From positions 1-54,743 of the IMG/VR virus record IMGVR_UViG_3300022562_001216: a stretch of 54,743 nt of DNA; one strand, given 5' to 3'. This stretch comes from a virus (lineage: Duplodnaviria; Caudoviricetes). The translations under genes were made by a program, and so were the position numbers. This document shows, piece by piece, positions 1 through 54,743 of this stretch (the first letter of the stretch is position 1; each line of letters starts with the position of its first letter). The notes beneath the pieces were generated by a model. The model did not search any database, was not told the origin of the DNA, and saw only the letters and a list, made by a program, of their open reading frames with translations.

Positions 1-144
1 GAGACTGGGGAGGAATCCAGCGAGGCGATCTAACCTACAAGCAGAACACCAAGCTGCGGGATCTGGAAAAACGCCTCGCCGCCCTCGCCCAAGAGCACAG
101 CTACGACAACCGCAACGCCAAAGGCAAAGCCCTGCGCAAGGCCA
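1..144. repeat. Terminal direct repeat, copy 1 (circularisation overlap)
   Basis: 1-144 is identical to 54600-54743 and the reading frame of the giant gene continues across the junction. Confidence 0.95.
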
Positions 145-3100
145 TTGACAAGGCCGATCTACCCCAACCGATCAAAGACGCGCTGTTAGCGGATATGGCA
201 AAGGCCTGGAAACAGGAAGGCGACCTGTTCAATCAGCCCCAATCAGAACCACAGGCTGAAGCACCCAAGCCCAAGCCCACCAAACCCAAGGCGCCAGAGC
301 CACCGACCCCAAGTCCTGCCAGTCCTGCCTTCAACCACTTCCACATCGATAAGCCGGAAGAGTTGGTGGGGGGTGGACAAGTGGCCCGCTTCAATAAAAA
401 CCAAAAGGCCATTGAAACCTATTTGGAGCTGAAAGACGCAGGCCGCCCAGCCACGCCGGAGGAGCAAGCCATTTTGGCCAGCTACACCGGTTGGGGCTCG
501 TTCGGTCAAGAGCTGTTCCAAGGCACCTGGGCCAACCCCAAGCCCAAAGAAAAATGGGAAGCCCGTGATGCCTGGCTGCGCCAACACCTGGGCCAGAGCG
601 AATGGGAAAGTATGCAACGCTCGATCACCAACAGCCATTACACCGATCCACCCACGGTGATGGCCATGTGGGATATGGTCAAGCGCTTGGGCTTCGACGG
701 GGGCCGGGTGCGCGAGCCCTCCATTGGCATTGGTAATTTCTTCGGCCTGATGCCGCGGGAGTTGAAAAACCGCTCGCAACTGGATGGCATTGAGCTTGAC
801 GAGATTACCGGCGGCATGGCGCAGATGATCTACCCGGACGCCAACATCCAAATCAAGGGCTATCAGGACTCCAAAACCCCGGATAACTTCTTTGATTTGA
901 TCATTGGCAACTGGCCGTTTGAAAACACCACCATTGCGGATCGGCGCTACAACAAGCTCAATCCCTTTGTGCATGATTACTTTTTCTTGAAAGCGGTAGA
1001 CCAGACCCGGCCTGGTGGCCTGGTGGTGGGGATCACGTCCAAGGGCAGCATGGACAAGGTGGATTCGACCATCCGCATGGAGTTGGCCAAGAAAGCCAAG
1101 CTGGTGGCGGCGTTTAGGCTGCCCACGGGGGCGTTCCAAGAGTACGCGGGCACCAAGGTCGTCACCGATATCATCATCCTCCAGAAGCGCCCAGAGCCCA
1201 TAGCGGGGGTGGTCGGGGAAGGCTGGGTGTTCACCCAAGAGCAGGCCTTTGGCGACAACAAGCTGAAAATCAACGAATACTTTGTCAACAACCCCGATAA
1301 AGTGCTGGGCAAAATGAGCTATGGCCACGGCACCACCCGCATGGGTGCTGACCTGGTGGTGGAGCGGCCCAAGGATATGAAACAAGCCTTGGCCGATGCG
1401 GTTAATTCCCTGCCCACCAATATCTATACCCGCAGTACGCGACCGCTGGCGGATTCTTACATTGCCAACCACACCGATGACCGTCAAAACGCCCTGGTGG
1501 AAAAAGACGGTGATTTTTATGTGGTGCTGGGCGAGTACATGCAGGAAGCCAATGAAGCCCTCAAATGGCGCATTGACAAGCCGAAAGAAGTGGCCAAGCG
1601 CAAAGACCAGCTCACCCGTCTGATTGCGATGCGTAAGCTTTACGGCAAGCTGATCGATGCGGAATTGAAGGGCACCGTGACCACTGAGCGTGAACAGCTC
1701 AACAAGGCCTACAAAGCGTTTGTGGACAAGTACGGACGCTTGAACGGCAAACCCAACGCCAACGGCAAGGTGGTGCCCTCCTGGGGCTTAAACTACCTGG
1801 CTAAGCTGTCTGAACCGTTTTACCCGGAGTTGGCGGCACTGGAGCGGCCCACTTTCGACAAAAAACGCAACGTCACCGGCTTTGAGCCGGTGGACATTCT
1901 CAGCAAAAGCACCATGCGCCGGGCCATGCGCATCGATGACCCGGACATTGCCGACGCCTATGTGCTGGCGCGCAACAGCAACGTTAACCCCAGTCTGGAA
2001 GAGATTGCCAAGTTAGCCAAGCAGCCCATCGAGGCGGTGCGGGCAGAGCTGGTGGACAAGGGCGCGGTGTTCGAGTTGCCGGGCGGTGATGTGGTGCCGT
2101 CCGATCTGTACCTGGCCGGTAACGTGCGCGAGAAGCTGCGCGATGCCAAGAATGCCGTCAGTGAGGGCATGAGCCAGTTGCAACACAACGTCGATGCCCT
2201 GGAAAAGGTGATCCCGGAGGACGTGCCCTATTACAAGATAGAAGCCAAAATGGGCGCAACCTACGTCACGCCAGAGCAATACACCCAATACATCGGTCAC
2301 ATGCTGGGGCTCAGTCCAGAGGAGGCGCCACGCTACGTCACCACCACCTACCGCCAAGGCCGCTGGAAAGTGGAACTCAACACAGAGGCGGATCGTCGGG
2401 TGGAGGCGCATTCGGGCTTTGGTTTGCCGGATGTGCCGTTTAAGCGCCTGGTCAATGCCGCGATGTCCAATCAGCGCATTACCATTCGCACCAAAGACGA
2501 CAAGGGCAATCTGGTGGTGGATGATCAGCTCACCGCAGAAGCCACCAGCAAGATCGATGAAATGCGCTTTAAGTTCGCCGCCTGGCTGTGGAGTGATCCA
2601 GAACGCCGGGTGCTGGTGGAGCGCGAATACAACGAGGTCATCAACGCTTACGCCGATGCCAGCTATGACGGTAGTTTCATGCGCTTTTCCGGCATGGCCT
2701 TAGCCCTGGGAGAAAGCGAGTTCAACCTGCGCAAACACCAAGCCGATGGCATTTGGCGGGGGGTGGCCACCCGCAAAGGTCTGTATGCCCATGAGGTGGG
2801 CACTGGCAAATCCTTCACCATTGCCGGCATTGCGGTGGAATCGCGCCGCTACGGCCTGGCACGTAAACCCCTGGTACTGGGCCACAACGCCAACGCCGCC
2901 AGCCTGGCGCGGGATATCCAGCAGATGTACCCCGGCGCCAAAGTGCTCTATGTGGACAACCTGGACAAGAAAAGCATTGAGCGCAACATCCGCACCATTG
3001 CCAATGACGACTGGGACGCGGTGGTGATGCCCCATTCCCTGATCGACAAGATCGGGTTCAGAAAAGAAACCCTGCTGGATCTGGCGCGGTTGGACATTGA

Positions 3101-6100
3101 AGCCATCATGGAAGAGTTGGCGGAAATGGATTTTAACCCCGAAGACGCCATGCTGATGAGCACCGAAGGCAGCTTTGAGACGGCTAAAGACGTAGACGCC
3201 GCCATGGAAGAGGCCAACAAAGCCATGAGCGGTAAGCGGGATATCCCCCCCACCGCCAAAGAGCTGGTGAAGCTGCGCAACCGGATCATTGCCAGCGTGT
3301 TTAAAGCCGCCCAGAGAGCCAGTGGTGAGAATGCCATTGCGTTTGAGGAGCTGGGGGTGGATATGGTGTTGGTGGATGAGGCCCATGAGTTCAAAAAGCC
3401 ACCGTTTGCCACCCGGATGCAGATGAAAGGCCTGCAAACTGCCGCCAGTGGCCAGTCAATCTGGCTCAAATTCATCACCGATTACATCCGTTCCACCAAC
3501 AACGGCTTCAATGTCCACTTGTTTACGGGTACACCGATCACCAACACCTTAGTGGAAATCTTCCACATGCAGCGTTACATCATGCAGGAAGAGATGCAAG
3601 CTGCGGGCATTGACCAGTGGGATGGCTGGTTTGGGGCGTTCGCCGCGGAAGTCGCGGATCTGGAGCTGACACCCACGGGTGAGTACGAGTTACAGACCCG
3701 CTTGGCCGCGTTTGTCAATGTGCCGGAGCTGCGGCGCATGATCGGCCAGTACATGGACGTGGTATTTGGCGATGAAATGCCGGAAATGCGGCCACGGCAA
3801 ACCCAAAACGGCAAAACCCTGGAAACCATTGAAACCGAAGCCGAGCGGATGGAATTGCTCAATGGTCGTACCGAAGGGGCCGATGATCGCCCCTACCGCA
3901 AAGTCATCAACGACACCGCGGATCTGACCCCAGAGCAGGAAAAAGCCTTCAAGGTGTTGCAGGACTACGCCCGCGACTGGGCCGAAATGGAAAAGCCGGC
4001 GCGACGGCGAGCCCAATTAGAGGGTGATCCCCGCTCACCCATTGTCACCGAAGGTTTGGCCGCTAAAGCCAGCCTGGACGTGCGTTTGATGTACGACTCC
4101 GACTATGCGGGCATGGAGGGCAAGACGCAGGATCACCCGAACAGCAAAGTGAGCCGGGTGGTGCGCAACGTCAAAGAGATCTATGACAGCCATCCCCTGG
4201 CCAACCAAGTGATTTTTATCGATCAAGGCTATTCGACCTCGACGGAGCGCAAACAAAACACGGATTTGATCATTGACGGCAAGCCGGTTAAAGAATCGGT
4301 TAAGATCCCGGTCTTCTCCACCGTGAAAGATTTGGTACTGCGCCTGCAACAAGCGGGCATTCCTGCCGAGCAGATTGCGGTGGTGGATGCCAGCGTCAAA
4401 CGGGCCGCTCGCAAAGAGGTGGCGGATCGCATGAACCGCGGTGAGCTGCGAGTGGTGATCGGCCAGTCGCAAACCTTGGGGGTGGGGGTGAACATGCAGA
4501 GAAACCTGCGGGCCATGCACCACATGGACGCCCCCTGGATGCCGGGCTTGCTGGAGCAACGCAATGGCCGCGGTTGGCGTCAAGGCAATCAATGGAACAC
4601 CGTGCTGGAGCACCGCTATCTGACGGATCGCATTGACGGTCGTCGCTGGCAAGTGCTGGCCATCAAGCAGCGCTTTATTCAAATGTTCATGCGCTCCAAA
4701 GGCGAGCTGCGGGTGATTGAGGGGGATGCGGCCAGTGATGACCAAGTGGACATCATGCAGACCTTTGCGGAAGCCGCGGGTGATCCCCGCATTCTGCTAC
4801 GGGAGAAAGCCAAGTCCAAGCTGGAAGGCCTGTACCAGAAACAACGCTTTCACAGTCAGGCCATTGCCGATGCTCACAGCAATATCAAAGAGTACCAGAA
4901 CAAGATTGCCGAACGGCAAGCGCAGATCGACGCAGAAAAACGCTCTCAACGCCCGGCCATTCTCAAGGCCTGGGTGGATTCGGTCAGCGGTAAGGCGTTT
5001 TCGTTCAACTACCCGGCTTTGAAGGAACCCATCACCGAGCGTAAGCAAGTCAACGAGTATGCCAAGGCCTTTGCCGAAAAAAACGTGCGGGTGGAAGCAG
5101 CGCCTAAGCTTTTTGGTGAGCTGGGTGGGCAGCAGATTTACATCGAACACCCAAAATATTCCGGTGAACCGCTGTTTACGGTGTCCTTTGAACTGGCCGA
5201 TGGCACTAGGTTAGGCTTTGAAACATTCCTCGACGTGGCCATGTTGGTGGATCGGGTGCGGCGATCCAGTGATTCGGACATTGCCTTTCACAATCACTGG
5301 ATCGAAGAGCACAAAGAATCCATCACCAGCCTGGAAAAAGTCACCAAAGAGCCGTTCCACTTGCAGGATCAGCTTGACGCCAAAGAGCGCGAACTGAAAG
5401 ACCTGGAAGACGACATTGCTCACAACCCGGTGGCGCCGCCTGCCTGGCTGCGATCCGGGGCGCCAGTGGATACGGAAGTGTTTAAGGGCAAACAGCCGTT
5501 TGTGGTCACAGGCCACCGTTGGAACAATGATGGCTGGTTCGTGGTGGCCGCTGATGCCAAGGGTCAAATGGTCATCCCCTACCTGGAAGCCAAGGACGCC
5601 CAAGGGATGCCGCTGTACGAGGAACGGGAGTTTGAACCCCCGGTGCGGGAAAAACCCGACAAGGAGCTTGGCGAGGCTGACAAGGTGCCCGACAAGAAGC
5701 TTGACGAGCCCGACAAGCCGGCTCAAGTCTCGCGCCTGGCCACTGAAACCAACCCCCGCGCTAGGCCGGAACTGATGCCACCAGTAGGCCGATTCAGCAA
5801 AAAACAAGCGACTCAAGCCAAGCCCATGAGCGCCGCAGAGGTGGGGGTGGCACTGGCGCCACGGGTGGCGGAACTGGGCGCCAATGTGCAGGTGAAGGTG
5901 GTGGATTCGGTGAAAAATTTGCCGAAAGCCGCCCTGGATCTGCTCAAATTCCGCGGCGACGTACAAAACCCGCGGGGTTTCTTCGATCCGGTGAGCCAGA
6001 AACTGTACATCGTGGCCGATCAGATTCATTCGCCCCTGGAAGCCCGGCAAGTGTTGGAGCATGAAGCGTTAGGTCACTTGGGGGTGGAAAGCCTGCTAGG

Positions 6101-9100
6101 GGACCAATTCACGCCGTTTGTGCGCGACGTGATGCGGTTGTACCGCTCCGGCAACAAAATTATCAACGAGGCCGCTACATCGATCATCCGGGACTATGGT
6201 GGCGACTGGAAGAATCTCACCAGCGAGGAGAAAGGCGCTGAAATCATCGCCAAGCTGGCCGAACGGCGAGCCAAGGGGGCTTCCTTCACCCGGCGCGTAC
6301 AGCAACTGTGGACCCGCATTGCCATGGCGGCTCGGCAAACCCTGCGCAAACTGGGCTTTGAGATTGGTTTCAGTGAGTATGAGGTCGCCTGGGTGCTGAT
6401 GCGGGCAGAAGATCGCCTCAAACACCGGGAGCCCTTGCCCATCACTGAGGGGGTGGGGCGTTTTGCCGCGGCCTCTAATCTGGACTGGCAGGATCGACAA
6501 AAGCAATTGATCGAAGACGTGAACAAGGGAATGCCTATTGATCGAGCGTTCCGCAAGCTGTTTGACGTGGCCGGCATGGTGGACGAGCACGGTGCCCTGA
6601 AGCGGCCTGACTGGGTGCCCGATGTGGTGGTGACGGCGTTTGAAAACTTCCTCAAATTCCTCAAAGACACCTATGGCCATGCCACCTGGTTGCATCCTGT
6701 GGTGGAAGTGGCCAAACGGGGTTTGATCGACCGCTATGGCCTGGATGAGGCGTATAAGGATCTGGATGCTAAGCGTCAAGCCCTGAAAAACCGCCTGTTG
6801 CGGGAGGGTGAGCGGTTCCTGACCCTGCTCAAAGAACGCCAAACCACCCGTGATGAGGCACAAGTTCTGTACGATATGCTGACGGGTCAGGCCGTGGGGA
6901 CCACCGAGCTGCAGGAATTGGCGGAACCCATCCGTGAGGCGATTCTGTCCATGGGCCGGATGGCGGTGGATCTGGAATTGATCAGTGAAGAGGCGTTCCA
7001 GCGCAATGCTGGCGCCTACCTGCACCGATCCTATGCCCGCTATGAGAAAAACGTCTCCACCTGGGCCACGCTGTGGAAGGCCAAGAACGGCAAAAAGCGG
7101 GTGAAACTGGAGGGCTCCGAACTCAAACACCGGGGTTACGAAATCCGCATCAACAAAGCCAAGGCCGCGGCACTGGGCAATTTGATCAACGGTAAGAGCG
7201 TGCAAGTGTTCCGGGTGCCGGGCAACAAGCACTACAAGTTTGGTCCCGTGGGCGCACCGCCAAAGAATCCAGCCTGGGAAAACAAGGGCGAGTTTGAGAT
7301 TCGGCGCGATAAGAGCGGCAAGCCCATCAGCCTGTGGCGTGACTGGACCAAGGCTGAGCGCGAGTCCATGGGCGAGATTACCGACGCTCGCTACGCGATT
7401 GCCAAAACCTACCAGCTCCTGGCCCATGACCTGGCCACGGGCCAATTCTATGAGGACATTGCGAAAAATCCCGATTGGGCACAGGACGAGGTAGATCCTA
7501 GCCTGGTGGTGAAAAAGACCGGGCGCCTGTCGAGCCTGGTGGATGACGGTGAGTGGGTACTGGTGCCCGATGACAAGATTGCCAAGAGCAATGCCAAGAA
7601 GTGGGGCAAGCTGGCGGGTAAGTACGTGCGGGTGGAAATCTGGCGGGATCTGAATGAAGTGGAAATGATGCAGCACGTCAATTTCTGGCGCCACTTGATG
7701 CGGTTCTGGAAATTGAACAAAACCGCCAGAAACGTGGTGGTCCACCTCAACAACGTCATGAGTAACCTGTTATTCGCGGATATGGCCGATGTGCGCCTGC
7801 GCGATATCAAGCAGGCCTTTATCTCCATGCGCGACAAGGACGAGTTCTATCAGATGGCGGTGGATCATCAGGCCTTTGGCAACGGCTTTGTGGAGAACGA
7901 GCTACGACAGGCCTTGTACGGCGACTTGCTGAAAGAATTGGAGCAGCAGGCCAACAACGACAAGGGCTTTTGGGAGAACGCCATTTTTAAAGCCGCGGGC
8001 AGCAATGAGTTTGTGCAGAAATTTGCGTTAATCGGCACTGCCATGGACAAAGCCTGGCATGGGCACCAATTGAAACAACCGAAAACCGTGCCGTTTACGG
8101 GGGTGCAGATTGAAAAGCTGGGCTTAAAACCCGCGGATCAGGCCATGTTGGACTTGTACCAGTGGGAAGACGAGTTTTTTCGGATGGCCGCCTACATTCG
8201 CCGCATGAGCCTGGGGGATACCCCGCAAGCCGCGGCAAAATACGCACGGGAGCAATTCCTCGATTACGACATTCGAGCCCCAGTGATCAATGTGTTGCGC
8301 AATTCGGTGTTGCCGTTTGTGGCTTACACCTATCGGGCGGTGCCGGTGATTGCCCGCTCGCTGGCGGCTCGCCCCTGGAAGATCCTGAAATACATGGTGG
8401 TGGCGGAGGCCTTGAACAGCCTGGGCTATGCCATGGCGCCGGGGGATGAGGACGAGGAACGCCGCTCGCTACGGGAAGACATTCAGGGTAAAACCTGGCT
8501 GGGGATACCGCGTATGATCCGGATGCCCGTTTTTGATCAGCACGGAGACCCGACCTTCCTGGACGTGCGCCGCTTCATTCCCGCCGGGGATATCTTTGAT
8601 ACCAACATTGGGCACCCGTCCGTGCCGATCCCGGCGCCGCTGCAATTCGGTGGGCCGTTAATGCTGGCCGCAGAGATGTTTTTGAACAAGGTGGGCTTTA
8701 CGGGGGATGAAATCAGCAACGAGCTGACGGACACCACCAGCGAGCGCTGGGCCAAAACCGCAAGCTGGGCGTGGAAAGGCATAATGCCCTCTGCGCCCTG
8801 GATACCAAAATCCTGGTACTGGGAAAAGATCAACACCGCCATCGATGGCGGGGTGGACCCACTGGGCCGAACCTACAGTGTGCCCGCGGCCATTGCCAGC
8901 TCAGTCGGTATCAAGGTCCAAGGTCAGAACGTGCGGCAAGGGTTTTACTACCACGAATTGGCCTTTGATCGCCGCGAGCGACAACTGAAGTCCGAGCAAA
9001 CGCAGACAGAACGTTTGTTCCGGCGTAATATGATTTCGGCAGATGAATTCAAGGAGTCGTCGGATACCCTGCGCCAAAAACTGTTGCAACTGAACAAGGA

Positions 9101-11216: not shown

Positions 11217-11504
11217 TTTTGTTGTCTCTCGTTCGTCTATGTCGCTGAAAGTGTAGAAATATTTCAAGTGTTTGTGTTGATTACATAGGGTTTTTCTGGA
11301 GGCGTAAAGCAAGCCACCGCCAGGGGATGGTATAAATTATAGGATAGATAATGCTCAAATATATTTTGGTTCCATAGTAAATGTTTATCGAAAACAGGGA
11401 CTTAACTGGGCTTGGGGTGTTTGGATCGCACCCTAAATAAATTGATGGAGGCTTGTGGTTCTGATTAAAGTGTGATGGCACTACAAAACAACAGGAGCAG
11501 AACG

Positions 11505-37090: not shown

Positions 37091-37099
37091 GAGAACAGC

Positions 37100-38425: not shown

Positions 38426-38428
38426 TCC

Positions 38429-39166: not shown

Positions 39167-39168
39167 CT

Positions 39169-45395: not shown

Positions 45396-46024
45396 AGTGC
45401 TATTTAGTGTACTCCGAAGACGGTCAAGTGGTGCAACGGATCAATGCCCGTGTGGCTCCACTGTTGCGTGATGGTCTGACGGCGCTGGAAGTTGACCCGC
45501 AGGATCGTTTAAGCGCAGGGGCATTAACGGAATTGAGAATCAATCTAGCGGGCGCTGAGCCCGTATTGGAAGCGCAAGAGTTGCCCGCAGAGCCGGAGTA
45601 TCCCCAAGAGGTGATTGCGAATATTAAAGGTTTGCGCGATCAACTGGAGCAGTCACCCATCACACTGACCATTCGTGGGGTTGAGTGCTCATTCGATTAC
45701 GACCGCACAGCCCGCGAGCGGTTGGAAAACGCCGATTCCTATTGGGATCAACTGGTTTACACAAAATCAGCGTATCAGAACGAGGAGCACATCGTATGGG
45801 CACTGAGCGACAACAGCACGGTGATGTTGAGCGAATCCGATTTGACCGCTGTGGTGTTGAATTTGTCAATGGCAGCGGCCATGCGAGCAGATGCACTGCA
45901 CGCCCATGCCCGCGAGCTGATTCAAGACTACGAGGCTGGTAATTTGGATGAGGATTATTTGGACCCGGCGACCTGGCCGGTGGCGGGCACCGTTATTTTG
46001 AGAGGGCGCAATCGTGATCAATGA
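45392..46024 (+). CDS. Tail fibre assembly-like protein (DUF4376-like)
   Basis: IKGLRDQLE, FDYDRTARERL, WALSDNS. Confidence 0.7.
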   Translation: MKCYLVYSEDGQVVQRINARVAPLLRDGLTALEVDPQDRLSAGALTELRINLAGAEPVLEAQELPAEPEYPQEVIANIKGLRDQLEQSPITLTIRGVECSFDYDRTARERLENADSYWDQLVYTKSAYQNEEHIVWALSDNSTVMLSESDLTAVVLNLSMAAAMRADALHAHARELIQDYEAGNLDEDYLDPATWPVAGTVILRGRNRDQ

Positions 46025-46232
46025 GAAAAACGTGGTGTACCTGGTGTACGACCGCAGCACAGGCCGGGTGCTGAGCAAAGTCGAGGGGGTGCTGTATGTG
46101 AACAATTTACAAGATCAAAACCTGGGGGTGCTGGAAGTGCCCGCGGTGGTGGATCTGGATCGACTGAGGGTGGACGCCAGCGATCCGTTGAACCCAAAAA
46201 TCATAGTGTCTGGTGCAAAATTGCGAGGGTGA
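46014..46232 (+). CDS. Small tail-associated protein
   Basis: LVYDRSTGRVL; resembles the N-terminus of 45392. Confidence 0.55.
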   Translation: MINEKNVVYLVYDRSTGRVLSKVEGVLYVNNLQDQNLGVLEVPAVVDLDRLRVDASDPLNPKIIVSGAKLRG

Positions 46233-46236
46233 ATAT

Positions 46237-47016
46237 ATGAAATTCGATAATTTGAAAAAGGACATTAAAAACAGCGGTGTTTTAAGCGAAATCCAAGAGT
46301 ACAACAACTGGAAATCAAACCCCTACGACGCGGAGGGCAACCGCACTCTGCCCCCCTCCATTGCGTTTAGCAAAAAAGTGATGGGCAACAACAAGATTTA
46401 CAACAAGTCTCACGAAATGGCTTACCAAGGCGGCTTGATGGACATTGACCGCTACGAAAGCAAGTTTGAGCCCGTCGCTGATGAGTACAGCCAGCGGGCG
46501 CTTAACTGGGACAGCGATCAGCGGGTGGAAGCCAACCAAGCCCGCAACGTCAACAGTCAACGCATGGGGCTGGCGCAACTGCGCCGCAACGCGGCTCAAG
46601 GGGGCATGAAAGGCATCCTCGATGCGGGCATTGTGGAAGCCAATGTGATGGGCCACGGCATGATGCAAGGCCAGCAGGCCACGGAATGGCAAAAGCTGCA
46701 AAAGCTGGCGACCTCATTGTCTCACGTCAACCGCACCGCCAGTGTGACTAATCAGGCCTCGGCCCAATGGGGTGGCATTCAAACTGCTCTGGCGCAGCAA
46801 AAGCAGGCCATCAGTGATGCGCTGTCAGCCCAACGCTCTGAATTGCTCGGCGAAGTAGCTGGGGGTGCTGCCGGCTACGCCTCCAAGGGCGGTTGGTGGT
46901 CATCCACACCGACCACGCGGGCGACGGGCTCCACCGGCCTAAGCGGTGATAGCTCGCTCTTATCGACGCCCAAGGGCAACACCAACATGCTGTCTTACAA
47001 CAACATGAAATACTAA
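46237..47016 (+). CDS. Putative internal virion/ejection protein
   Basis: GAGGG SD; A/G/Q-rich helical; position before the giant virion protein. Confidence 0.6.
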   Translation: MKFDNLKKDIKNSGVLSEIQEYNNWKSNPYDAEGNRTLPPSIAFSKKVMGNNKIYNKSHEMAYQGGLMDIDRYESKFEPVADEYSQRALNWDSDQRVEANQARNVNSQRMGLAQLRRNAAQGGMKGILDAGIVEANVMGHGMMQGQQATEWQKLQKLATSLSHVNRTASVTNQASAQWGGIQTALAQQKQAISDALSAQRSELLGEVAGGAAGYASKGGWWSSTPTTRATGSTGLSGDSSLLSTPKGNTNMLSYNNMKY

Positions 47017-47062
47017 ACGACTACAAGGCGCATACAAAGCGACTACAAGGCGAATACGGAGA
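47008..47062 (+). repeat. 11-bp hexamer array (4-5 units)
   Basis: GACTACAAGGC-GCATACAAAGC-GACTACAAGGC-GAATACGGAGA. Confidence 0.85.
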
Positions 47063-47067
47063 CGATC

Positions 47068-47883
47068 ATGGCGTACTGGTTTGAAAGGCAACGCATCCAA
47101 GCATACGGCGATCTGTTGCAGCAGGATTACTACGATTACTTAGAAAAAGGCCGACCGCTGGAAGACGCGATCTTGGAAGAGGCCGCAGGCGGCGACAACG
47201 AAGCCAACGTCAACAAGGCCATGCAGGCCTCCGACCAGGCCTACGACAACGCGGCGCTACAGACTAACCAGCAACTGGCCCGCTATGGCATCCGCTTAAA
47301 CGAAAACCAGCGCCAAGCCAAAGCCCGGCAATACGGGGTTAACAAGGTGCTGGCACGGGTCAACTCCGCCAACAACACCCGCTACAGCGAGTCCGAGCGG
47401 CAAGAGCAGGCGCGAGATCTGGCCATGGGTATTGGCTCCGACTTGTACGCCAACGCCCTCAGTAAGCTGGGTTACGCCGCAGAGGGGGCCGGTCAAGAGA
47501 TCCAGTTCCAGGAAGCCCGCAAAGCGGCCAAAAAATCCCGTCGAATGCAGACGGTGGGCACGGCGCTGGGGACCGCTGCCGCGGTGGCCATCTCTGACAA
47601 GAAAAAGAAGCAAAACATCAGCGACAACGACAACCGCATGAGCCTGCGCAAAATCCTGGGCATGAAAACCAAGAATTACGAATACAAGCCGGAAACCGGC
47701 AGAAGCCCCGGTCAGCGCACGGGGGTGATGGAAGATCAGGCACCGGAAGAAATGCGAGCCACCACCGCCACGGGTGAAAAAGGGGTGGATCTGGCGAGCT
47801 GGGTGGGTGAGTTGACCGGCGCCGTGCAGGAGCTGGCACAGCAACAGGATCAGTTACGCATGGGATTGAAGAGGAAAAGCTGA
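47068..47883 (+). CDS. Ejection protein with C-terminal peptidase S74 (autocleaving chaperone) domain
   Basis: GTALGTAAAVAI-SDKKKKQNI, YEYK, GVMEDQAP, LTGAVQEL. Confidence 0.7.
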   Translation: MAYWFERQRIQAYGDLLQQDYYDYLEKGRPLEDAILEEAAGGDNEANVNKAMQASDQAYDNAALQTNQQLARYGIRLNENQRQAKARQYGVNKVLARVNSANNTRYSESERQEQARDLAMGIGSDLYANALSKLGYAAEGAGQEIQFQEARKAAKKSRRMQTVGTALGTAAAVAISDKKKKQNISDNDNRMSLRKILGMKTKNYEYKPETGRSPGQRTGVMEDQAPEEMRATTATGEKGVDLASWVGELTGAVQELAQQQDQLRMGLKRKS

Positions 47884-49793
47884 TGGCATTCGACGCAGGC
47901 AGTGCAGGCACAGGGTTTTTACGGGGTTTTCTGGCCATTCGCGGGCTCATGAATGAAGAGGAGCGAATGAAGCAAAACCAAGAGCGCTGGCAGAAAACCA
48001 TGGACTACCAGCGCAGTCGGGATCAAATGACGGATGCCCGCTGGCAACAGAGTTTTGATCAGACTCAAAGCAACTGGCAGCAAACTTATGATACGACTCA
48101 AAGCAACTGGCAGAAGAACTACGACGCCACCCAAGCCCATCGTGATGCCTTGCTGGGCCTTCAGCGGTCGCAAGAACAACGCAATGTGGAAGCCCACAAA
48201 CAGAACATGGCAGCCGGCAAACTGACGATGGAAGCCAGTCAATTGCAACTGGATGAAACCAAACGCGCCATCGATGCCGACAAGGCGAACAAGTTAACCC
48301 GGTCTGCCATCATGCTGTTGGAGCAGGGTATTGCCACGCCGGATCTGATTGAGTGGATCGATGCTCAGCCCAGCACCCAAGAATGGCTCAAAACCCGCTA
48401 TCGTACGAATGCCAAGATTGTGGATTTGAAGCCCAACACGTTCAAAGGCACACCGGGTTCCTACCACACCATCATCGAGGGGGTGGACCCCAAAACCGGC
48501 AAGCGCGGGCGCGGTGTTGCTACGGCAGAGGACAAGGGCAGCACCAACGGTCAAGCGCCGTTGCTGGAATTTACCCCGGAAGCGGTAACGCAAGTCATGT
48601 ATCAACTGGCTCAGCAATTGGAAGGCGCGAGCCCCGAAGAAGCTGAACGCTTAAAAAAGGCCACCGCGGGCTATCTGCAAGGGTTACAGCGGGTTCATGG
48701 GCCGTTACAGGACAGCTTGGAATACAGCCCGGATGGCCGCACCTGGATCAGAGGCGCCGATGGTTCGTTGAAAGCGGCTAATCGGGGCAAATACGATGCC
48801 CCTGGCGGTTATGGCGGTTCCAGCGGTTATGGCGCCCCTGGCAGCTTGACCGCGAGCCAGCGTGAGACCCACTGGAAAAACACCGCGGCCATGTTCGATG
48901 ATGAGATGGGGGATGACCTGGACCGCGGCATTGATAACTCGATCCAGCGCCGTGCGGCCCTGGCCACCGCGCAAGCCGCCAGCCCGGAATTTGGCCACTT
49001 GCCCCCGGCGGTGCTGTTGCGCTTGGCCAAACAGGCAGAAACCCCGGCGGCGACGACGGATGAAAACGGCAACCCGGTTCCCAGTGCTCCCTACATTTTG
49101 ACCAAAGAAGCTGCCTTGGAGCAGGCCAAAATAGACCTCAACAAGGGGCGCGTGCTGCCGGATGCCATCGGGGGCTATGACATCAATGACGATGAAGTGA
49201 AGACGCGGGCCGCTCAAATTCTCAAAGAGGAAACGAAAGCCTACTCTGAAAACCTCCGTGACGCTTACCAACAAGCGGCTTATCAAATGTACATGCGGCA
49301 GGGGTTGCGTCAATTCGCGCCCCAAGGCCAACCCCAGCCCGGCCAGCCCCAACAACAACAGCCGGGAATGCCGCAACAGCCTGGCCAGCAAGCGCAACCG
49401 GAAACCTTGCAGGTGGAGGACGAAAACGCCCCAAGCCAGCAGGAAGTCATGGACGAGGTGGTCACTAACGGCAAGCACTACAACGACGCTCGTGATCTGA
49501 TTGCGGATATCAAAGAGGAATTGCGGGCCAACGGTGAGTCGGTGCCCTCCGATGAGTTTTTGGTGGATTGGGTCAAGCGGGAGCACCCAGAGCTTGGCTT
49601 TGACCACTGGCGGGAGCAGCGCCGCGGCCTGTTGAATTACTCCAATTCTGGCCCGCGGGTGGACGCTCGCACGGTGTTGCAGAACAAGCGCATGGAAATG
49701 GCGCGTCAGAGCGAACTGGACGAGGCACGGATGCGGTTAGCGGATCTAGCGGCCTTGCGGCGCCAAAAAGCCCAGCAGGAAAAGCAGAGATAG
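47883..49793 (+). CDS. Internal virion/ejection protein
   Basis: GTGFLRGF N-terminus, 11-aa Q/W repeats, Q/P linker. Confidence 0.65.
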   Translation: MAFDAGSAGTGFLRGFLAIRGLMNEEERMKQNQERWQKTMDYQRSRDQMTDARWQQSFDQTQSNWQQTYDTTQSNWQKNYDATQAHRDALLGLQRSQEQRNVEAHKQNMAAGKLTMEASQLQLDETKRAIDADKANKLTRSAIMLLEQGIATPDLIEWIDAQPSTQEWLKTRYRTNAKIVDLKPNTFKGTPGSYHTIIEGVDPKTGKRGRGVATAEDKGSTNGQAPLLEFTPEAVTQVMYQLAQQLEGASPEEAERLKKATAGYLQGLQRVHGPLQDSLEYSPDGRTWIRGADGSLKAANRGKYDAPGGYGGSSGYGAPGSLTASQRETHWKNTAAMFDDEMGDDLDRGIDNSIQRRAALATAQAASPEFGHLPPAVLLRLAKQAETPAATTDENGNPVPSAPYILTKEAALEQAKIDLNKGRVLPDAIGGYDINDDEVKTRAAQILKEETKAYSENLRDAYQQAAYQMYMRQGLRQFAPQGQPQPGQPQQQQPGMPQQPGQQAQPETLQVEDENAPSQQEVMDEVVTNGKHYNDARDLIADIKEELRANGESVPSDEFLVDWVKREHPELGFDHWREQRRGLLNYSNSGPRVDARTVLQNKRMEMARQSELDEARMRLADLAALRRQKAQQEKQR

Positions 49794-49873: not shown

Positions 49874-52800
49874 ATGGATTTTGGAAAATACGATCCACTT
49901 TATCGGCAAAAGCACAACATTGCTGATCCAGCCGCGGCGCAGCCGGCGCCGCAGCAGCAACAGCCAGCGCAACCGGCGCCGGGCAGCCTGACCTACGTTG
50001 ACGCCCTCACCGGCACCGCGGAGTTTGCCCCGCGTGGACCACGGCAAGGGATGCCGGATTATTCCCACCTGTCCAGCGGCATGGCCGGTTTGGGTGCGGG
50101 GGTGCAAGACGTAAAATCCCTTTGGGGTGGCTTTATGGCCGCTGCCGGCCAAGCGTCGGGCAGTGAGGAGCTGAAAGCCTACGGCCTGGAAGTGATGAAA
50201 GCCGGGGAAATGGAGGGGGCCAAGTACCGGGAGGGTCGCGCAACCAAGGTCGAGGACATTGATTTTGGCGACAACTTCACCGAGTTTGCGGTGTTTAACC
50301 TGGCCATGCTGGGGCCATTTGCCCTGGAAAGTGCCCTGTCAGCACTGGCGGGTGCGGCCATGGGAACGGGTGTACCTGGGGTTGGTAACGTGGTCGGCGC
50401 TGGGGCTGGGGTGCTGGGCAAAACCGTCCTCAAAAAAGCCCTACGCAACTACGTTAAGGGCGAATTGCAGGACGAGGCTGAGAAAAAAATGGCCCAAAAT
50501 GCCCTGCGTCAAGTAGGGGCGTCCTTTGGTGCAATGACGGTGGGCTATCCGCAGCACGTAGGTGACGCTTACAGCGAAGTGCTGGAATCTGGCCAAGAAA
50601 ATGCGGGACCGGCGTTTGCCGCGGCGGTGCCAATGGCGGCCCTGGATGCCGTATTGCCGGGCTTGGTGGCGGGCAAGCTGTTGAATCCGGGCAAGGGATC
50701 GGCACCGATTCGAGGGCTCAAAGGCCTGTTGCAGGGGTCTGCGGCGGAAGGGCTCACTGAAGCCGGGCAGGAAGAAACCCTGATTCGATTACGGCAAAGC
50801 CTGGACCCTGAATTTGATCCTTACGGCGAAGAAGCCAACAGCCTACGCTTGAACGCCGCGGTCATTGGTGCCTTGGGCGGTGCCGCTGCCGGGGGTGCCG
50901 GTGGTCTGTTATCCCGTCGCTCCGACACGCCACCCCTGCCGGAAGCCGGTGATCTGGGTCTGGACGGCACGCCCACACCAGAGGGGCCACCAGCCGCACC
51001 CACGGAATTGCGGGGGCTCAAGGGGGTGTTGGGTGATCGCTACCGGGAGCCCGGCGTCAGACCGTCTGGGCTCAAGAAGATTATGGCCAACCCGGACAAA
51101 GCGCGAGCCGAAGCCCGCGACCGGGAAACTCAACGCATTGAGGCTTTGCAGCAATTGCAGGCCGAGCGAGAAGCCGCAGAAGGCAAAAACTACCGCAGTT
51201 TGCGTGACATTCTGGGCGAGCGTTACAACGAGCCCGGTCTACGGCAACAACTGACCGGCTTGAATGCGATCATGGCCGATCCAGAAGCCGCACGGGCACG
51301 GGTACGACTGAGCAAAGCCTTGGGTATTGCTGATCAACAATTGGCGATGCTGCAAGCCGAAGCAAAGGCACGCCGCGACTCGCGCCCCTTGAGTGAGATT
51401 CTGGGGGATTTGTACCGCACACCGGGGGTACGCCCACCGCCACCCAAAGGCCTGAAGGCGGTGATGGCACGGCGCGGCCAAATCCAAGCCGATGCCGAAG
51501 AGTTGCGCCTGGCCGAACGGCTGGCTGCTCAGTTGGCCGAGCAAGACGCCCAAGCCGCGGCAGAAGCCGCCCGGCCTAAAGGCCTGAAAGCGGCCTTGGG
51601 GGAACGCTGGAAAGAAACGCCCACCCCTGAGCCTGCCAAACCCCTGACCGGCTTAAACCGCATCCGGCAAGATCAGGAGTACATGCGGTCCATCGCCGAG
51701 CAAGCCCGCGAAGCGGCCAATACAGTGGCCTTGGCCGCAGCGGCCAAAAATGAGCCCCTGCGGGGTTTGAAGGGGGTGCTGGGCAAGCGTTTCAACGAGG
51801 GGCCACCCACCGGGCTCAAACGAGCAGTGACCAATCCAGAGCGGGTACTGGCCAATCTGCGCGCCGCCAAAGCCGCCGAACTTGCCGCAGCAGGCCGCAA
51901 AGCCCGTCGCTCCCGAATGCCGCCTAACCTGGTGGAACCGCGCTTGCTGCGCAATCCGTACCGCAATGAACTGCAAAACATGGCCAATAGCCTGGTCAAA
52001 GGCGGGGATGTCAGCTACATCCGCGACGAGCAAGGCCGCATCACGGGCCGCACGCCCTCGGTCAATCCGAGCTGGTTCCAGCGGCTGTCTGAAGACAAAG
52101 ACTACAAAATGTCCACCGATCAAGCCAAACGAGCCGTGGAACGAGCCCTCAAAGGTGAAAAACTGGGGGCGCGGGAAGCTCGCGTGGTGGTGGCCATGCT
52201 CGATGACATCAACGAGCGGCGGGACCAGCAAGCCCGTGACAACCGCTGGCGCCTGGAATCCCTGCGAGCCCGGCGCAAGTACCTGCGCGAATCCATGGAC
52301 ATTCCCGGCTTTGATGAGGCGGATTTGGACAGCATGGGCCAAGTCTATGATGAGGCCGATTACAACGCCCAGTTGAGTGATGATGAGAGAGTCGTAGCGG
52401 AAATGGCCCAACAGGCCTTAGAATTGGGGGTGAGTCAGGCCGAAGTCAATGCTGCCATCGACAGCACCACCAGCACTGACAGCGCCATGGCGGCGCTGGA
52501 ACTACTGATATGGAGCGAACGCAATGGCCACCGAGCCCAACAAGCCCAAACCGGGGACGTACCGACCCAACAAGGTGAAAGCCCAACTGAAACAGTGGGC
52601 ACAGAAACCACCGAAGAAACGCCAACGTTAGCGGAGAAAGTCGAAGCCGCGGCGGATCAGGCCGCCAATTCCCCCAACAACGACCTGCCCGAATCCACCA
52701 TCCCGCAACAGGAAGCGGATAACTACAAGAAAGGCCATGTGAGGATTGCAGGCCTGTCCCTCTCCATTGAAAACCCGCGGGGCTCCAAGCGCAAAGGGGT

Positions 52801-54743
52801 CAGCCCGGACGGCAAGAAATGGGAAAACACCCTCGCCCATCATTACGGCGACATCAAGGGCACTATTGGCGCCGATGGGGACGCCATCGATGTGTTCATT
52901 GGGGAAAATCCAGAGTCCGACAAAATCTATGTGGTGGATCAGGTCAAGCCGGATGACACCTTTGACGAGCATAAGGTGATGCTGGGCTTTGACAGCCTGG
53001 AAGACGCCAAAGCGGGCTATCTGGCTAACTATGACAAAGACTGGCAAGGCCTGGGCAACATCACCGAAACCACACTAGACCAGTTTAAAGACTGGTTGGA
53101 GCACGGGCGCCACAAAAAGGCCTATGCCACAAAATCCACCTCATCTGAGGGGAAAAAACCGGCAAGCAAGATGGAACAAGCCGCCAGCGCCCTGAATATG
53201 ACGGAGCGCGAGGCGCAGATTCAAATGGCCCTGTTCTATGGCCGGGAGTGGACAGAGCGGGAATACAAGGACGATCCAGAGTTATTAGCCGCGGCACTCA
53301 AGGCCTTTGACGACTTCGAGCAGAAAGAACAGGAAGAAGTCAAGCAGAAAGCCCGCGACGATACAGCCCGCAAAGCTAAGATCGAGCGCAACGAAACCTT
53401 GTTGCAAGCCGCCATTGCTCGCCAGCATGAGGCCATGGAACGTCTGAAATCCAAGGGCATTGCCCACCATGGCGGTAAAGTGGAAGTGGGTGATGAGGGT
53501 TCGGTGAAGGGCATCGATGCCATTAACCAGAAGCGCCGCAACTACGCCATCCGCATGATGCAAGAAGAAATCATCCGAATGCAGAAGTGGTTGGAGCAAG
53601 CCCGCAACGGCGCCTTCGACGTAGACGAGTACCTGGACAAGCTGGGCGGCCTGATCGGTTCGGCCAACAACACCACCGCCATCGGTGATTACCTCTTTTA
53701 CCTGCACAAGTTGCTGAATTATCAGTTCAAGAAAGACGGCACACTGTACGCCAAACGGTCCATGGCGAAAGTGGCCGCTAACAAGCTGGACGGCTTTGAA
53801 CCCAAGCACGTGGAGCTGAAAAACACCCACGGTAACGTGATTCTGGAAGGTTGGGCCGTGGCGCCGCTGGATGCCACTGAAAAAGTCAAAGATCCTCGCG
53901 CCGTGCGCAAGGCCAAACGGGCCAAAAAGCGGGTGGAAATTGACGAGGATATGAAGGAAATCGCCAAGAAACTGGCCGAAGCCCTCAACAAGAAATCCAT
54001 GAATCCCGTGTTTGACCCGGAAATCTACGCCTTAGCGGGGCAACTGGGGGCCAAGCTGGTACAGAAAGGTGCGCTGAAATTCGCGGATTTTGCAGATAAC
54101 TTCCTGGAAATCTTGGGAGCCTATCAAGCCCGTAAGGCCGGGGAGGGCATTGTCAAACAAGTCTACCTGAGTGTGGCGCAGGAACAGGACGACGCCACCT
54201 TTGCGAAAATGGACGATTCCGCCACCGTCAGAGCGTTTGATTTAGCCAGCCTGCAGGCGGATACTACACAAGAGGCGGAGGTAACGGGTAATGAGCGAGC
54301 TGAGTTACAAACCAACGAAGGCGTGGGAGGAGCAAATCAGGGCGGAACATCAAGCGTACCTGGAGGACGACAACGCCCTCCACAACGAGAACCTGCACCA
54401 GGAGATACTGGCGACGTGGCAGGCGCTCAGCCCGCAGATGTGGGCGGATCTGACCGCACGGGACAACTTTCAGGAACCGCTGGCGTACGTGCTCCAACAG
54501 CAGATGTGGGAAATGGAAGCGTCACTGAGACGCGGGGGGATGAGCTACCCGGACAGCCTACACCTGGCACGGGCGGAAACGCTGATGCTGGAACCAGAGG
54601 AGACTGGGGAGGAATCCAGCGAGGCGATCTAACCTACAAGCAGAACACCAAGCTGCGGGATCTGGAAAAACGCCTCGCCGCCCTCGCCCAAGAGCACAGC
54701 TACGACAACCGCAACGCCAAAGGCAAAGCCCTGCGCAAGGCCA
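49874..54743 (+). CDS. 5' part of the giant DarB-like polyvalent protein (includes InPase domain); continues into 1-9134, total ~4,619 aa
   Basis: AGGTGG SD and ATG at 49874; the ORF track shows no stop in this frame up to the window end. InPase motifs NYKKGH, IENPRGSKRKG, HYGDIKGTIGADGDAIDVF, FDEHKVMLGF at ~52700-53100. Confidence 0.88.
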   Translation, partial: MDFGKYDPLYRQKHNIADPAAAQPAPQQQQPAQPAPGSLTYVDALTGTAEFAPRGPRQGMPDYSHLSSGMAGLGAGVQDVKSLWGGFMAAAGQASGSEELKAYGLEVMKAGEMEGAKYREGRATKVEDIDFGDNFTEFAVFNLAMLGPFALESALSALAGAAMGTGVPGVGNVVGAGAGVLGKTVLKKALRNYVKGELQDEAEKKMAQNALRQVGASFGAMTVGYPQHVGDAYSEVLESGQENAGPAFAAAVPMAALDAVLPGLVAGKLLNPGKGSAPIRGLKGLLQGSAAEGLTEAGQEETLIRLRQSLDPEFDPYGEEANSLRLNAAVIGALGGAAAGGAGGLLSRRSDTPPLPEAGDLGLDGTPTPEGPPAAPTELRGLKGVLGDRYREPGVRPSGLKKIMANPDKARAEARDRETQRIEALQQLQAEREAAEGKNYRSLRDILGERYNEPGLRQQLTGLNAIMADPEAARARVRLSKALGIADQQLAMLQAEAKARRDSRPLSEILGDLYRTPGVRPPPPKGLKAVMARRGQIQADAEELRLAERLAAQLAEQDAQAAAEAARPKGLKAALGERWKETPTPEPAKPLTGLNRIRQDQEYMRSIAEQAREAANTVALAAAAKNEPLRGLKGVLGKRFNEGPPTGLKRAVTNPERVLANLRAAKAAELAAAGRKARRSRMPPNLVEPRLLRNPYRNELQNMANSLVKGGDVSYIRDEQGRITGRTPSVNPSWFQRLSEDKDYKMSTDQAKRAVERALKGEKLGAREARVVVAMLDDINERRDQQARDNRWRLESLRARRKYLRESMDIPGFDEADLDSMGQVYDEADYNAQLSDDERVVAEMAQQALELGVSQAEVNAAIDSTTSTDSAMAALELLIWSERNGHRAQQAQTGDVPTQQGESPTETVGTETTEETPTLAEKVEAAADQAANSPNNDLPESTIPQQEADNYKKGHVRIAGLSLSIENPRGSKRKGVSPDGKKWENTLAHHYGDIKGTIGADGDAIDVFIGENPESDKIYVVDQVKPDDTFDEHKVMLGFDSLEDAKAGYLANYDKDWQGLGNITETTLDQFKDWLEHGRHKKAYATKSTSSEGKKPASKMEQAASALNMTEREAQIQMALFYGREWTEREYKDDPELLAAALKAFDDFEQKEQEEVKQKARDDTARKAKIERNETLLQAAIARQHEAMERLKSKGIAHHGGKVEVGDEGSVKGIDAINQKRRNYAIRMMQEEIIRMQKWLEQARNGAFDVDEYLDKLGGLIGSANNTTAIGDYLFYLHKLLNYQFKKDGTLYAKRSMAKVAANKLDGFEPKHVELKNTHGNVILEGWAVAPLDATEKVKDPRAVRKAKRAKKRVEIDEDMKEIAKKLAEALNKKSMNPVFDPEIYALAGQLGAKLVQKGALKFADFADNFLEILGAYQARKAGEGIVKQVYLSVAQEQDDATFAKMDDSATVRAFDLASLQADTTQEAEVTGNERAELQTNEGVGGANQGGTSSVPGGRQRPPQREPAPGDTGDVAGAQPADVGGSDRTGQLSGTAGVRAPTADVGNGSVTETRGDELPGQPTPGTGGNADAGTRGDWGGIQRGDLTYKQNTKLRDLEKRLAALAQEHSYDNRNAKGKALRKA
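52524..52631 (+). CDS. Possible nested 35-aa basic peptide (+1 frame)
   Basis: GGAG 8 nt before the ATG; host frame reads as a low-complexity linker here. Confidence 0.3.
   Translation: MATEPNKPKPGTYRPNKVKAQLKQWAQKPPKKRQR
54291..54632 (+). CDS. Overprinted 113-aa gene nested in the +1 frame of the giant gene
   Basis: GGAGGT SD 8 nt upstream; globular helical sequence while the host frame becomes G/P/T/R low-complexity over the same span. Confidence 0.7.
   Translation: MSELSYKPTKAWEEQIRAEHQAYLEDDNALHNENLHQEILATWQALSPQMWADLTARDNFQEPLAYVLQQQMWEMEASLRRGGMSYPDSLHLARAETLMLEPEETGEESSEAI
54600..54743. repeat. Terminal direct repeat, copy 2
   Basis: Identical to 1-144. Confidence 0.95.

Follow-up and report, generated by a model that had tools for sequence, protein, structure and literature searches.

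The 54,743-nt IMG/VR record IMGVR_UViG_3300022562_001216, which originates from marine sediment and was analyzed over its full length (referred to below as the window), carries a podoviral set of virion, packaging and lysis genes together with genes for plasmid replication and partition, on a single circle that lacks integration machinery. These are the gene features by which phage-plasmids are recognized, and the element is probably a short-tailed temperate phage that persists as a low-copy circular plasmid in the prophage state. A first-pass annotation made from the sequence alone had proposed an uncommon, possibly undescribed lineage of podoviral phage-plasmids with a podoviral virion set and plasmid functions on one circle. 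All of the components that it listed were found, and the proposal of such a lineage is supported by the lack of any close relative in the searches described below and by the small number of podoviruses among phage-plasmids. The lineage is new, but the kind of element, phage-plasmids including rare podoviral ones, is already known.

The first and last 144 bases of the window are identical (bases 54600–54743 repeat bases 1–144), giving a unique circle of 54,599 bp, and the record is classed in IMG/VR as having direct terminal repeats, with a CheckV completeness of 100%. The end overlap falls inside a coding region, where an open reading frame (ORF) beginning at 49874 runs on in frame through 3..9134, forming a giant gene of 4,619 codons across the closure. 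Its product matches the DarB-like profile phrog_10089 (4,647 positions) with an E-value of 0, and the two halves do so collinearly: residues 274–1542 of the N-terminal part correspond to profile positions 498–1437, and residues 31–1812 of the C-terminal part to positions 1496–3215. The in-frame join and the collinear match of both halves argue that closure restores a natural gene.

The late genes all lie on one strand, in the order lysis, TerS/TerL, portal, a gap, a scaffold candidate, capsid, adaptors, tail, fibers and giant gene (Table 1), and all of them are intact ORFs in tight operons. In profile searches the complete podoviral morphogenesis set expected from the first inspection, i.e., an N4-gp56 capsid protein, a DUF6682-like adaptor and a giant DarB-like protein, was detected; DUF6682 is the annotation carried by the homologous adaptor gene on plasmids of Endozoicomonas and Massilia. 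Among the 62–64 ORFs covered by the family scans (Pfam and PHROGs), no sheath, tail tube or tape measure family was matched, and neither was any RNA polymerase family, including the giant virion RNA polymerase that characterizes N4-like phages (Schitoviridae). The virion, typed from gene homology and not from particle images, appears to be that of a podovirus.

The replication initiator is a Rep_3 protein whose two winged-helix domains score above their Pfam thresholds and which matches the solved chains of RepE, pi and pPS10 RepA. Its scores lie under the equivalog cut-offs of the NCBI models for RepM (93.7 against 250) and RepE (41.8 against 342), marking it as a divergent member of Rep_3, and the closest of its relatives among 5.8 billion protein clusters shares 30% identity with it. 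Relatives of this Rep were found in 1,141 of 72,556 plasmid records versus two of 50,697 phage records, those two phage entries being 4–5 kb in size, and a search of IMG/VR returned none; its ancestry lies with plasmids. Iteron-controlled theta origins, such as RepE/oriS, pi/ori-gamma and P1 oriR, usually combine iterons, DnaA boxes and an A+T-rich region, and the region beside rep has this standard anatomy. The two DnaA boxes (TTATCCACA) are the only perfect copies in the whole window, where 0.24 would be expected by chance, and the iteron has six matches in the window (the five perfect tandem copies and the inverted copy with one mismatch), a number reached in 0 of 100 shuffles. Rep_3, DnaA boxes and iterons, all noted at first inspection, are thus confirmed by score and position. 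The adjoining A+T-rich stretch is a candidate DNA-unwinding element, and the inverted iteron-like element in the rep promoter region is a candidate operator for autorepression of Rep. The family scans recognized no replication gene besides Rep and a DnaQ-like exonuclease, so that Rep and its origin (oriV) probably start lytic replication as well. In a separate observation, the Logan assembly of a public marine sediment run (X1, below) has a single break in 13001–33000, at 14664 within the iteron array; iteron arrays can fragment short-read assemblies of elements of this sort.

A second block of plasmid-type genes, ~6.1 kb in length (25979–32103), separates the portal operon from the scaffold gene. 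Portal and capsid genes are 7.5 kb apart in the window, whereas in all 15 relatives that have the two genes the spacing is 1.3–2.6 kb (for one permuted circular relative the distance was corrected by hand to ~1.9 kb), and by this comparison the cassette appears to be an insertion into the head operon. Its units are bounded by terminator-like hairpins. On the minus strand mazE precedes mazF with a 13-nt overlap, followed by a hairpin with a T run and then by parA and the 81-aa gene; on the plus strand are three small ORFs, a 160-aa ORF, the recombinase gene and two further ORFs. The likely start of ParA is the ATG at 27317, which gives a 270-aa protein with no N-terminal DNA-binding domain. Over its full length ParA is 52–53% identical to the ParA proteins of Arsenophonus, Pantoea, Erwinia and Rahnella plasmids, while among the best 15 of 127 matching records in the phage collection the identity is at most 30.1%; like Rep, it is of plasmid ancestry. 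On the Arsenophonus plasmid pArsBee4 the ParA gene is followed by an 84-aa ORF similar to the 81-aa protein (28% over 58 residues, pairwise E 3e-9), and an Erwinia plasmid has a similar unannotated small ORF beside its ParA. Because homologs of the partner adjoin related plasmid ParAs, the two genes represent a conserved two-gene plasmid partition operon, and type Ib partition has this arrangement, in which the gene of a short, deviant Walker A ParA precedes that of a small partner. The first-pass annotation had read these genes as ParA with a ribbon-helix-helix protein: ParA and the small partner stand, and the ribbon-helix-helix fold was not confirmed by a structure model too poor for fold assignment (predicted local distance difference test score, pLDDT, 51.7). 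Its MazEF pair was recovered as a PemK-fold toxin with an overlapping, upstream small antitoxin gene.

The resolvase named in the first-pass annotation is a small serine recombinase of the cassette: it aligns end to end with the Gin invertase of phage Mu (E 2.4e-46, with the YARVST motif aligned) and is nearer to Gin than to the Tn3/gamma-delta enzymes. Its place in the maintenance cassette suggests a role in multimer resolution, and a role as an invertase is possible. A 23-nt palindrome, ATACAAAC-N7-GTTTGTAT, occurs in three copies where none is expected by chance; one abuts the parA start codon and another lies between mazE and the divergent plus-strand ORFs, and these sites could serve a shared regulator as operators, or could act as centromere sites. 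The window contains exactly two copies, 81% identical, of a G-rich 48-nt element with GTTTTACAYTKGTAAGATTTTTT at its end; their 23-nt core was unmatched by any shuffle. Each copy stands ahead of one half of the split late region, and the element is a candidate late promoter or activator site that would keep both halves expressed; it may have been duplicated when the cassette split the late region.

As the first-pass annotation had indicated, the genome has neither an integrase nor a protelomerase: a six-frame profile search of the whole record found no tyrosine integrase (PF00589) and no protelomerase (PF16684) at E ≤ 1, whereas the integrase search was positive in 14 of 14 control genomes.

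The contiguity of the phage and plasmid parts was examined by comparing 13001–33000 with contigs from three public runs: X1 (marine sediment), X2 (mangrove) and X3 (soil metagenome). Two Logan contigs of X1, one of 7,148 bp at depth 13.6 and one of 39,835 bp at depth 15.5, cover this interval with no differences and bridge the joins at 20.0, 25.9–26.3 and 32.1 kb. A chimeric assembly, which the first-pass annotation had named as an outcome that would count against it, was therefore not seen, the independent assembly of X1 crossing the phage/plasmid junctions at even depth. X2 yielded 12 short contigs, five at ≥99% and seven at 95–99% identity, and X3 yielded 15, of which three are at ≥99%, ten at 95–99% and two at 90–95%. 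Among the pieces listed from X2 and X3, some match the phage side, namely the lysis genes and TerS, and others the plasmid side, namely parA/mazF, mazE, the region of the recombinase, and HNH; phage and plasmid sequences thus recur together in independent samples from other studies. No RNA datasets were listed among the sequencing runs that hold the element.

Taken together, these features suggest the following life cycle. In the carried state, Rep_3 would bind the five iterons and, with host DnaA at the two boxes, open the A+T-rich stretch for theta replication, while copy number and Rep synthesis would be kept low by the inverted iterons together with the iteron-like site of the rep promoter. 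Segregation of the copies would fall to ParA and its 81-aa partner, MazEF would kill or arrest cells that lose the element, and the serine recombinase would resolve multimers or else invert some segment (none was located). The plasmid prophage is presumed to be inducible, and on induction two late units would be transcribed, each from behind the same 48-nt element: the first would comprise the lysis, terminase and portal genes, and the second everything from the scaffold gene to the giant gene, capsid and tail included. The resulting podovirus particle would carry the 4,619-aa DarB-like polyvalent protein, which may protect the incoming DNA.

Table 1. Features of the window (coordinates as in the 54,743-nt record; strand left blank where none applies)
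Feature	Position	Strand	Basis or remark
Giant protein, C-terminal part	1..9134	+	Methylase/SNF2-helicase core; Helicase_C domain
AlpA/excisionase-type small DNA-binding protein	11472..11738	+	Family matches; no integrase partner in genome
DEDDh (DnaQ-like) 3'-5' exonuclease	11792..12727	+	Family matches
Rep_3 replication initiator (WH1 + WH2)	13608..14459	-	Rep3_N 75.2 bits vs 22.4; Rep3_C 33.3 vs 21.1
Iteron-like inverted element	14528..14553		Between rep and iterons, in rep promoter region
Two perfect DnaA boxes	14584-14592, 14602-14610	-	Exact match
Five perfect tandem 21-bp iterons	14613..14715	+	Repeat search
A+T-rich stretch	14716..14890		Composition
Two inverted iteron copies	15084..15121	-	One full with one mismatch (15104-15121), one partial
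HNH/DUF968 protein	15197..15976	+	Family matches
23-nt palindrome, three copies	16248-16270, 27316-27338, 28151-28173		None expected by chance
159-aa protein, candidate repressor	16746..17225	-	Weak C-terminal ribbon-helix-helix lead, below 0.9
406-aa protein	18160..19380	+	Weak Cro/C1-type helix-turn-helix at ~residues 240-313
48-nt element, copy 1	20079..20126	+	Upstream of lysis/packaging/portal genes
Endolysin (Phage_lysozyme)	20140..20577	+	PF00959, E 1.5e-11
Holin	20613..21041	+	GTA_holin_3TM; phrog_3427, E 3.6e-41; two small ORFs next
Terminase small subunit TerS	21743..22216	+	Profile matches
Terminase large subunit TerL	22213..23691	+	Profile matches
Portal, SU10 type	23695..25725	+	PF23899 SU10_portal, 57.3 bits vs cut-off 30
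Terminator-like GC hairpin with T run	25984..26009		Between converging portal and par operons
81-aa ParA partner	26267..26512	-	Homolog follows ParA on Arsenophonus plasmid pArsBee4
ParA partition ATPase	26505..27317	-	AAA_31, E 9.8e-34; deviant Walker A KGGVGKT
MazF/PemK toxin	27405..27734	-	PemK_toxin 78.7 bits vs 23.1, E 4.8e-22
MazE-like antitoxin, 78 aa	27722..27958	-	Addiction antidote family 23.9 bits vs cut-off 55.9 (weak)
Small serine recombinase, 202 aa	29923..30531	+	Resolvase 159 bits vs 23.3, E 1.1e-46; HTH_7 24.7 vs 23.8
212-aa protein	31457..32095	-	No family match; last ORF of cassette block
48-nt element, copy 2	32104..32151	+	Upstream of scaffold/capsid/tail/giant genes
Scaffold candidate	32256..33197	+	Position; acidic, coil-rich sequence
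Major capsid protein, N4-gp56 family	33244..34230	+	TIGR04387 337.6 bits vs cut-off 60, full length
Two SU10-type adaptor paralogs	34716-35366, 35363-36013	+	PF24175 SU10_adaptor 64.9 and 30.6 vs cut-off 27
Four tail-region proteins	36017..41544	+	Last (791 aa): Ig domains and podophage GP4 gp77 fiber-tail adaptor domain
Internal virion protein	41578..43221	+	phrog_511, E 1.5e-129
Tail fiber and accessory genes	43218..49793	+	Phage_Tail_Tip, DUF4376, Peptidase_S74 chaperone domain, others
Giant DarB-like/polyvalent virion protein, N-terminal part	49874..54743	+	Profile matches

The giant protein contains an InPase domain (PF18823, E 9.7e-57) at residues 945–1076, in its N-terminal third and upstream of the methylase/SNF2-helicase core, and ~2,900 of its residues have no Pfam family match. 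The closest match of the methylase-helicase core is in Pseudomonas phage vB_PaeM_USP_18 (51.5% identity over 1,786 residues). LPD38 and PLxRFG domains, names used for polyvalent proteins, are annotated in the giant proteins of the Endozoicomonas and Massilia plasmids. These labels and the profile matches agree with the "polyvalent proteins" that Iyer et al. 2017 (PMC5512222) describe for phages and conjugative elements.

Among the remaining features, a small ORF just past the end of the late region (9629–9916) matches a crAss001_48-related family (PF21825, E 2.8e-7). At the far end of the cassette, ~630 nt at 31457–32095 are open on both strands, encoding 212 aa on the minus and 210 aa on the plus strand; neither product has a family match, and of the two the one from the minus strand resembles a normal protein, the other a shadow frame. 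A tRNA search of the window found none, an Rfam scan gave no match at the gathering score, and PADLOC reported no defense system in the window, only the DEDDh exonuclease and one weak match. A sigma-70 promoter scan of 9–21 kb returned 7 sites against a shuffle mean of 13.7 and was discarded.

Megablast of 9135–32103 gave no match in the plasmid and phage collections searched above (72,556 and 50,697 records, respectively). Capsid relatives occur in five of the plasmid records, the best at 53.5% identity, and none of these is P1-, N15- or SSU5-like; clustering in a described phage-plasmid group, the other outcome that had been named as adverse, was likewise not seen. IMG/VR holds 146 capsid relatives (best 63% identity), and species-representative genomes hold 10 loci, including 57-kb Bacterioplanoides and 43-kb Burkholderiales contigs at 61–62%. 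The nearest cultured phages by capsid are Pseudoalteromonas phage vB_Pun_Y3 (42%), Pseudomonas phage Rollin (41%), Xanthomonas phage DES1 (40%) and Stenotrophomonas phage StenR_269 (38%), the last of which, according to its report, is a podovirus as seen in the electron microscope and has a capsid protein of N4-gp56 type (PMC10747016). Members of this large and mostly uncultured N4-gp56/SU10-portal clade (capsid identity 38–63%) share with the window a portal, terminase and adaptors in the same order. As hints to the host, the ParA relatives are on gammaproteobacterial plasmids and the capsid relatives are in Oceanospirillales and Burkholderiales contigs. When 60 ORF rows of the window were compared by tblastn with 17 fetched genomes (E ≤ 1e-5), the 23 rows between 9134 and 20420 had no match in any of the 17, and the sole match of the cassette ORFs was a partial one of ParA in Massilia.

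Several points weigh against the interpretation of the element as a phage with a plasmid prophage. The record is metagenomic, and closure of the circle is supported by the end overlap and the reading frame. Run X1 is possibly the source sample, in which case its contigs represent a second assembler on the same reads and not a second sample, and the X2 and X3 contigs, at 150–340 nt, bridge no junction. Neither the Rep region nor the cassette is present in any of the 17 genomes compared, so that no second genome shows the combination to be stable over time. No repressor or lysis-lysogeny switch was identified in the window, where the 159-aa, 406-aa, 127-aa (weakly PadR-like) and AlpA-type proteins are all weak leads: ESM Atlas look-ups of the 159-aa and 406-aa proteins scored 0.85–0.86, and the structure model of the 159-aa protein was unusable (pLDDT 45.1). 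The recombinase matches gamma-delta/Tn3 resolvases (E ~1e-31) less strongly than Gin, and no convincing res site or invertible segment was found near its gene or around the fiber genes.

The strongest competing explanation, though an unlikely one, is a virulent or carrier-state podophage with borrowed plasmid genes, in which Rep_3 and the iterons are simply its replication origin, ParA and MazEF serve infection (genome positioning and exclusion of other phages), and no stable plasmid prophage exists. The missing repressor favors this explanation, as does the position of Rep as the only replication gene recognized, which must then serve lytic growth too. The clade may also be largely non-temperate: among IMG/VR relatives that are at least 90% complete, all seven lack an integrase and six of the seven lack ParA. 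Each maintenance function taken alone occurs in lytic phages, whereas the complete set defines plasmid prophages such as P1, and the combination found here of iterons and DnaA boxes, two-gene par operon, toxin-antitoxin pair and recombinase is the standard low-copy maintenance set. The competing explanation also draws on the cultured relative StenR_269, which is reported to have no clear integrase and to lyse its host poorly (PMC10747016).

Less probable still is a plasmid with a domesticated or defective podophage module that yields no infectious particles, being either non-inducible or similar to a gene transfer agent. That such modules can sit on decaying plasmids is indicated by the Massilia plasmid NZ_CP024609, in which the same kind of virion module lies amid insertion sequence (IS) elements, RHS and two-component genes. 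In the window the late ORFs are intact and in tight operons, lysis and packaging genes are present, the family scans found no IS elements or cargo genes among the ORFs, and the record is complete by CheckV, all of which speak against decay.

A mis-assembly of a phage with an unrelated plasmid from the same sample is very improbable. In its favor, the GC content of the Rep region (48.6%) and of the cassette (51.8%) is lower than that of the late genes (55–58%), and no relative has both the phage and the plasmid parts. Since the plasmid genes are in two separate blocks interleaved with phage genes, a chimera would need four false joins, three of which would have been reproduced by the second assembler in the 7- and 40-kb contigs; both types of part recur in two other studies, the 48-nt element stands on either side of the cassette, and the ranges of GC at third codon positions (GC3) overlap (0.51–0.72 in the plasmid blocks and 0.61–0.73 in the late genes). 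The rep and oriV segment itself has a GC content of 42.7%. The GC contrast was also considered as a sign of recent acquisition and was rejected, the difference being modest and the GC3 ranges overlapping. An integrating temperate phage that uses the small serine recombinase as its integrase, to which the presence of that enzyme and of an AlpA/Xis-type protein could point, is equally hard to credit, as serine integrases have a large C-terminal domain that this 202-aa protein, of resolvase/invertase size and aligned end to end with Gin, does not have, and as iterons, par genes and a toxin-antitoxin pair would be needless in such a phage.

A temperate phage with a plasmid prophage remains the preferred interpretation. 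In contrast to the window, the 13 long IMG/VR relatives have neither Rep_3 nor a resolvase; one has ParA and two have a tyrosine integrase (one of these two is classed as a provirus), and the 6-kb portal-capsid cassette of the window is present in no clade relative compared. A Rep_3 search found none in the 13 IMG/VR relatives, in four metagenome-assembled genomes (MAGs) with related contigs or in the Massilia plasmid. ParA family matches in those MAGs were set aside, being chromosomal genes elsewhere and uninformative on the phage contigs. The relatives' modules that do occur, i.e., the integrases of two of the 13, ParA with an HTH_36 protein on an 85-kb circle, and ParA/ParB with integrases on the Massilia plasmid, are not homologous to those of the window, and the capsid clade appears to have gained lysogeny or plasmid modules on several independent occasions.

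Four of the relatives deserve individual mention. An 85,564-bp IMG/VR circle with terminal repeats (capsid 62%) encodes ParA, a 156-aa ORF without a family and an HTH_36 protein at 8796–10547, and no integrase; it is a candidate for a second phage-plasmid of the capsid clade, with a non-homologous maintenance module. NZ_CP103299, deposited as a circular plasmid of 54,159 bp from a pure culture of Endozoicomonas gorgoniicola, is an entire phage of the clade (capsid 45%, giant LPD38 protein, RecT/YqaJ, antirepressor) with no annotated rep, par or integrase. Among the compared genomes, the Bacterioplanoides MAG contig (57,427 bp, a separate contig) shares the most late genes with the window, including TerL (56%), portal (42%), capsid (61%), internal virion protein (37%) and fiber and S74 proteins, and there is no Rep_3 match anywhere in that MAG. 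The plasmid NZ_CP110465.1 (75,126 bp) of the clinical species Acinetobacter baumannii, one of the five plasmid records with a capsid relative, has an N4-gp56 capsid annotated at 55346–56023 (25.9% over 64% of the query); it, too, may be a short-tailed phage-plasmid.

A broader reading, plausible but offered tentatively, is that the element represents an undescribed lineage, at the level of a family, of podoviral phage-plasmids in sediment bacteria, possibly caught in the making. A phage with an N4-gp56 capsid and a giant polyvalent protein may have gained a plasmid replicon and, in the middle of its head operon, a 6-kb cassette of par, toxin-antitoxin and recombinase genes, and its late transcription may have been repaired by a duplicated late promoter. 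The capsid clade would then offer a natural series in which integrating, plasmid and non-temperate lifestyles repeatedly replaced one another. Phage-plasmids spread genes both vertically, as plasmids do, and over long distances, as viruses do, and a complete environmental podoviral example indicates that this lifestyle is open to short-tailed virions outside clinical isolates. The 1.6-kb rep-oriV segment, the two-gene par operon, mazEF and the recombinase make a small, testable system. The cassette inside the head operon and the differing modules of the relatives also bear on the origin of phage-plasmids by recombination, a theme of Pfeifer and Rocha 2024 in the part of that work available.

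The late region of the window resembles that of the temperate Bcep22-like podophages (Bcep22, JC1 and vB_PaeM_USP_18) in its general gene order, in which the gene of a phrog_511 internal virion protein comes before a terminal, DarB-like giant gene that exceeds 4,600 codons. The DarB-like protein of Bcep22 has 4,602 aa, and the giant protein of the window is ~30% identical to it over 26% of its length. The label "Bcep22-like" given in the first-pass annotation holds to this extent: three of the 60 ORF rows (giant protein, one adaptor and internal virion protein) match Bcep22 and one matches USP_18, but capsid, portal and TerL have no tblastn match to either phage and belong to the other, larger N4-gp56 clade. 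Its statement that Bcep22-like phages carry a tyrosine recombinase agrees with the annotated integrase of Bcep22 and with the integration of JC1 into rimO given in the available text on that phage. USP_18 has an annotated site-specific recombinase. The window has no tyrosine integrase and does have Rep_3, par and toxin-antitoxin genes, which are absent from the annotations of these phages.

The nearest capsid in a replicon of a cultured organism (53.5%) is that of the 87-kb Massilia violaceinigra B2 plasmid NZ_CP024609, which is circular and extrachromosomal, and encodes ParA/ParB. Supplementary file 6 of Pfeifer and Rocha 2024 already has this plasmid under "P-P, Not_assigned", an unassigned phage-plasmid. 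Like the window it has a portal, adaptor, internal virion protein and giant protein (5,555 aa), with seven of the 60 ORF rows in common. It differs in having two tyrosine integrases, IS elements, RHS and two-component/signaling genes and no Rep_3, and its ParA is 39% identical to that of the window over 24% of the length, in the P-loop region only.

Podoviral phage-plasmids have been described before, and IncFIB replicons, like the replicon of the window, are iteron replicons. In the available text of Pfeifer et al. 2021, 95.9% of the assignable phage-plasmids are siphoviruses or myoviruses, in agreement with the first-pass statement that the best-studied phage-plasmids are of these types; podoviruses are few, their scarcity is given no explanation there, and those named are Klebsiella IncFIB members of the F116 community and a crAssphage singleton. 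These elements, compared here by description only, share with the window a short-tailed virion and plasmid-type replication, and no Klebsiella record is among the five plasmid records with a relative of the window capsid. Full-text literature searches on podoviral, Bcep22-, DarB- or N4-gp56-type phage-plasmids found no comparable element.

The closest parallel in function is phage P1, which combines an iteron initiator with DnaA boxes, ParA-based partition, an addiction pair, multimer resolution, a Gin/Cin-type recombinase and virion-borne DarB. The window has the same set of functions on one circle, together with a giant DarB-like protein; among the matches listed by the searches, the DarB-like core is the one similarity to P1. 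The parts themselves differ: P1 has a contractile tail, a genome of ~94 kb, ParA/ParB, the Doc toxin and Cre, whereas the window has a genome of ~55 kb, a podovirus-type virion, a short ParA with an 81-aa partner, MazF, and no tyrosine recombinase of the Cre type. The element can be regarded as a functional short-tailed counterpart of P1.

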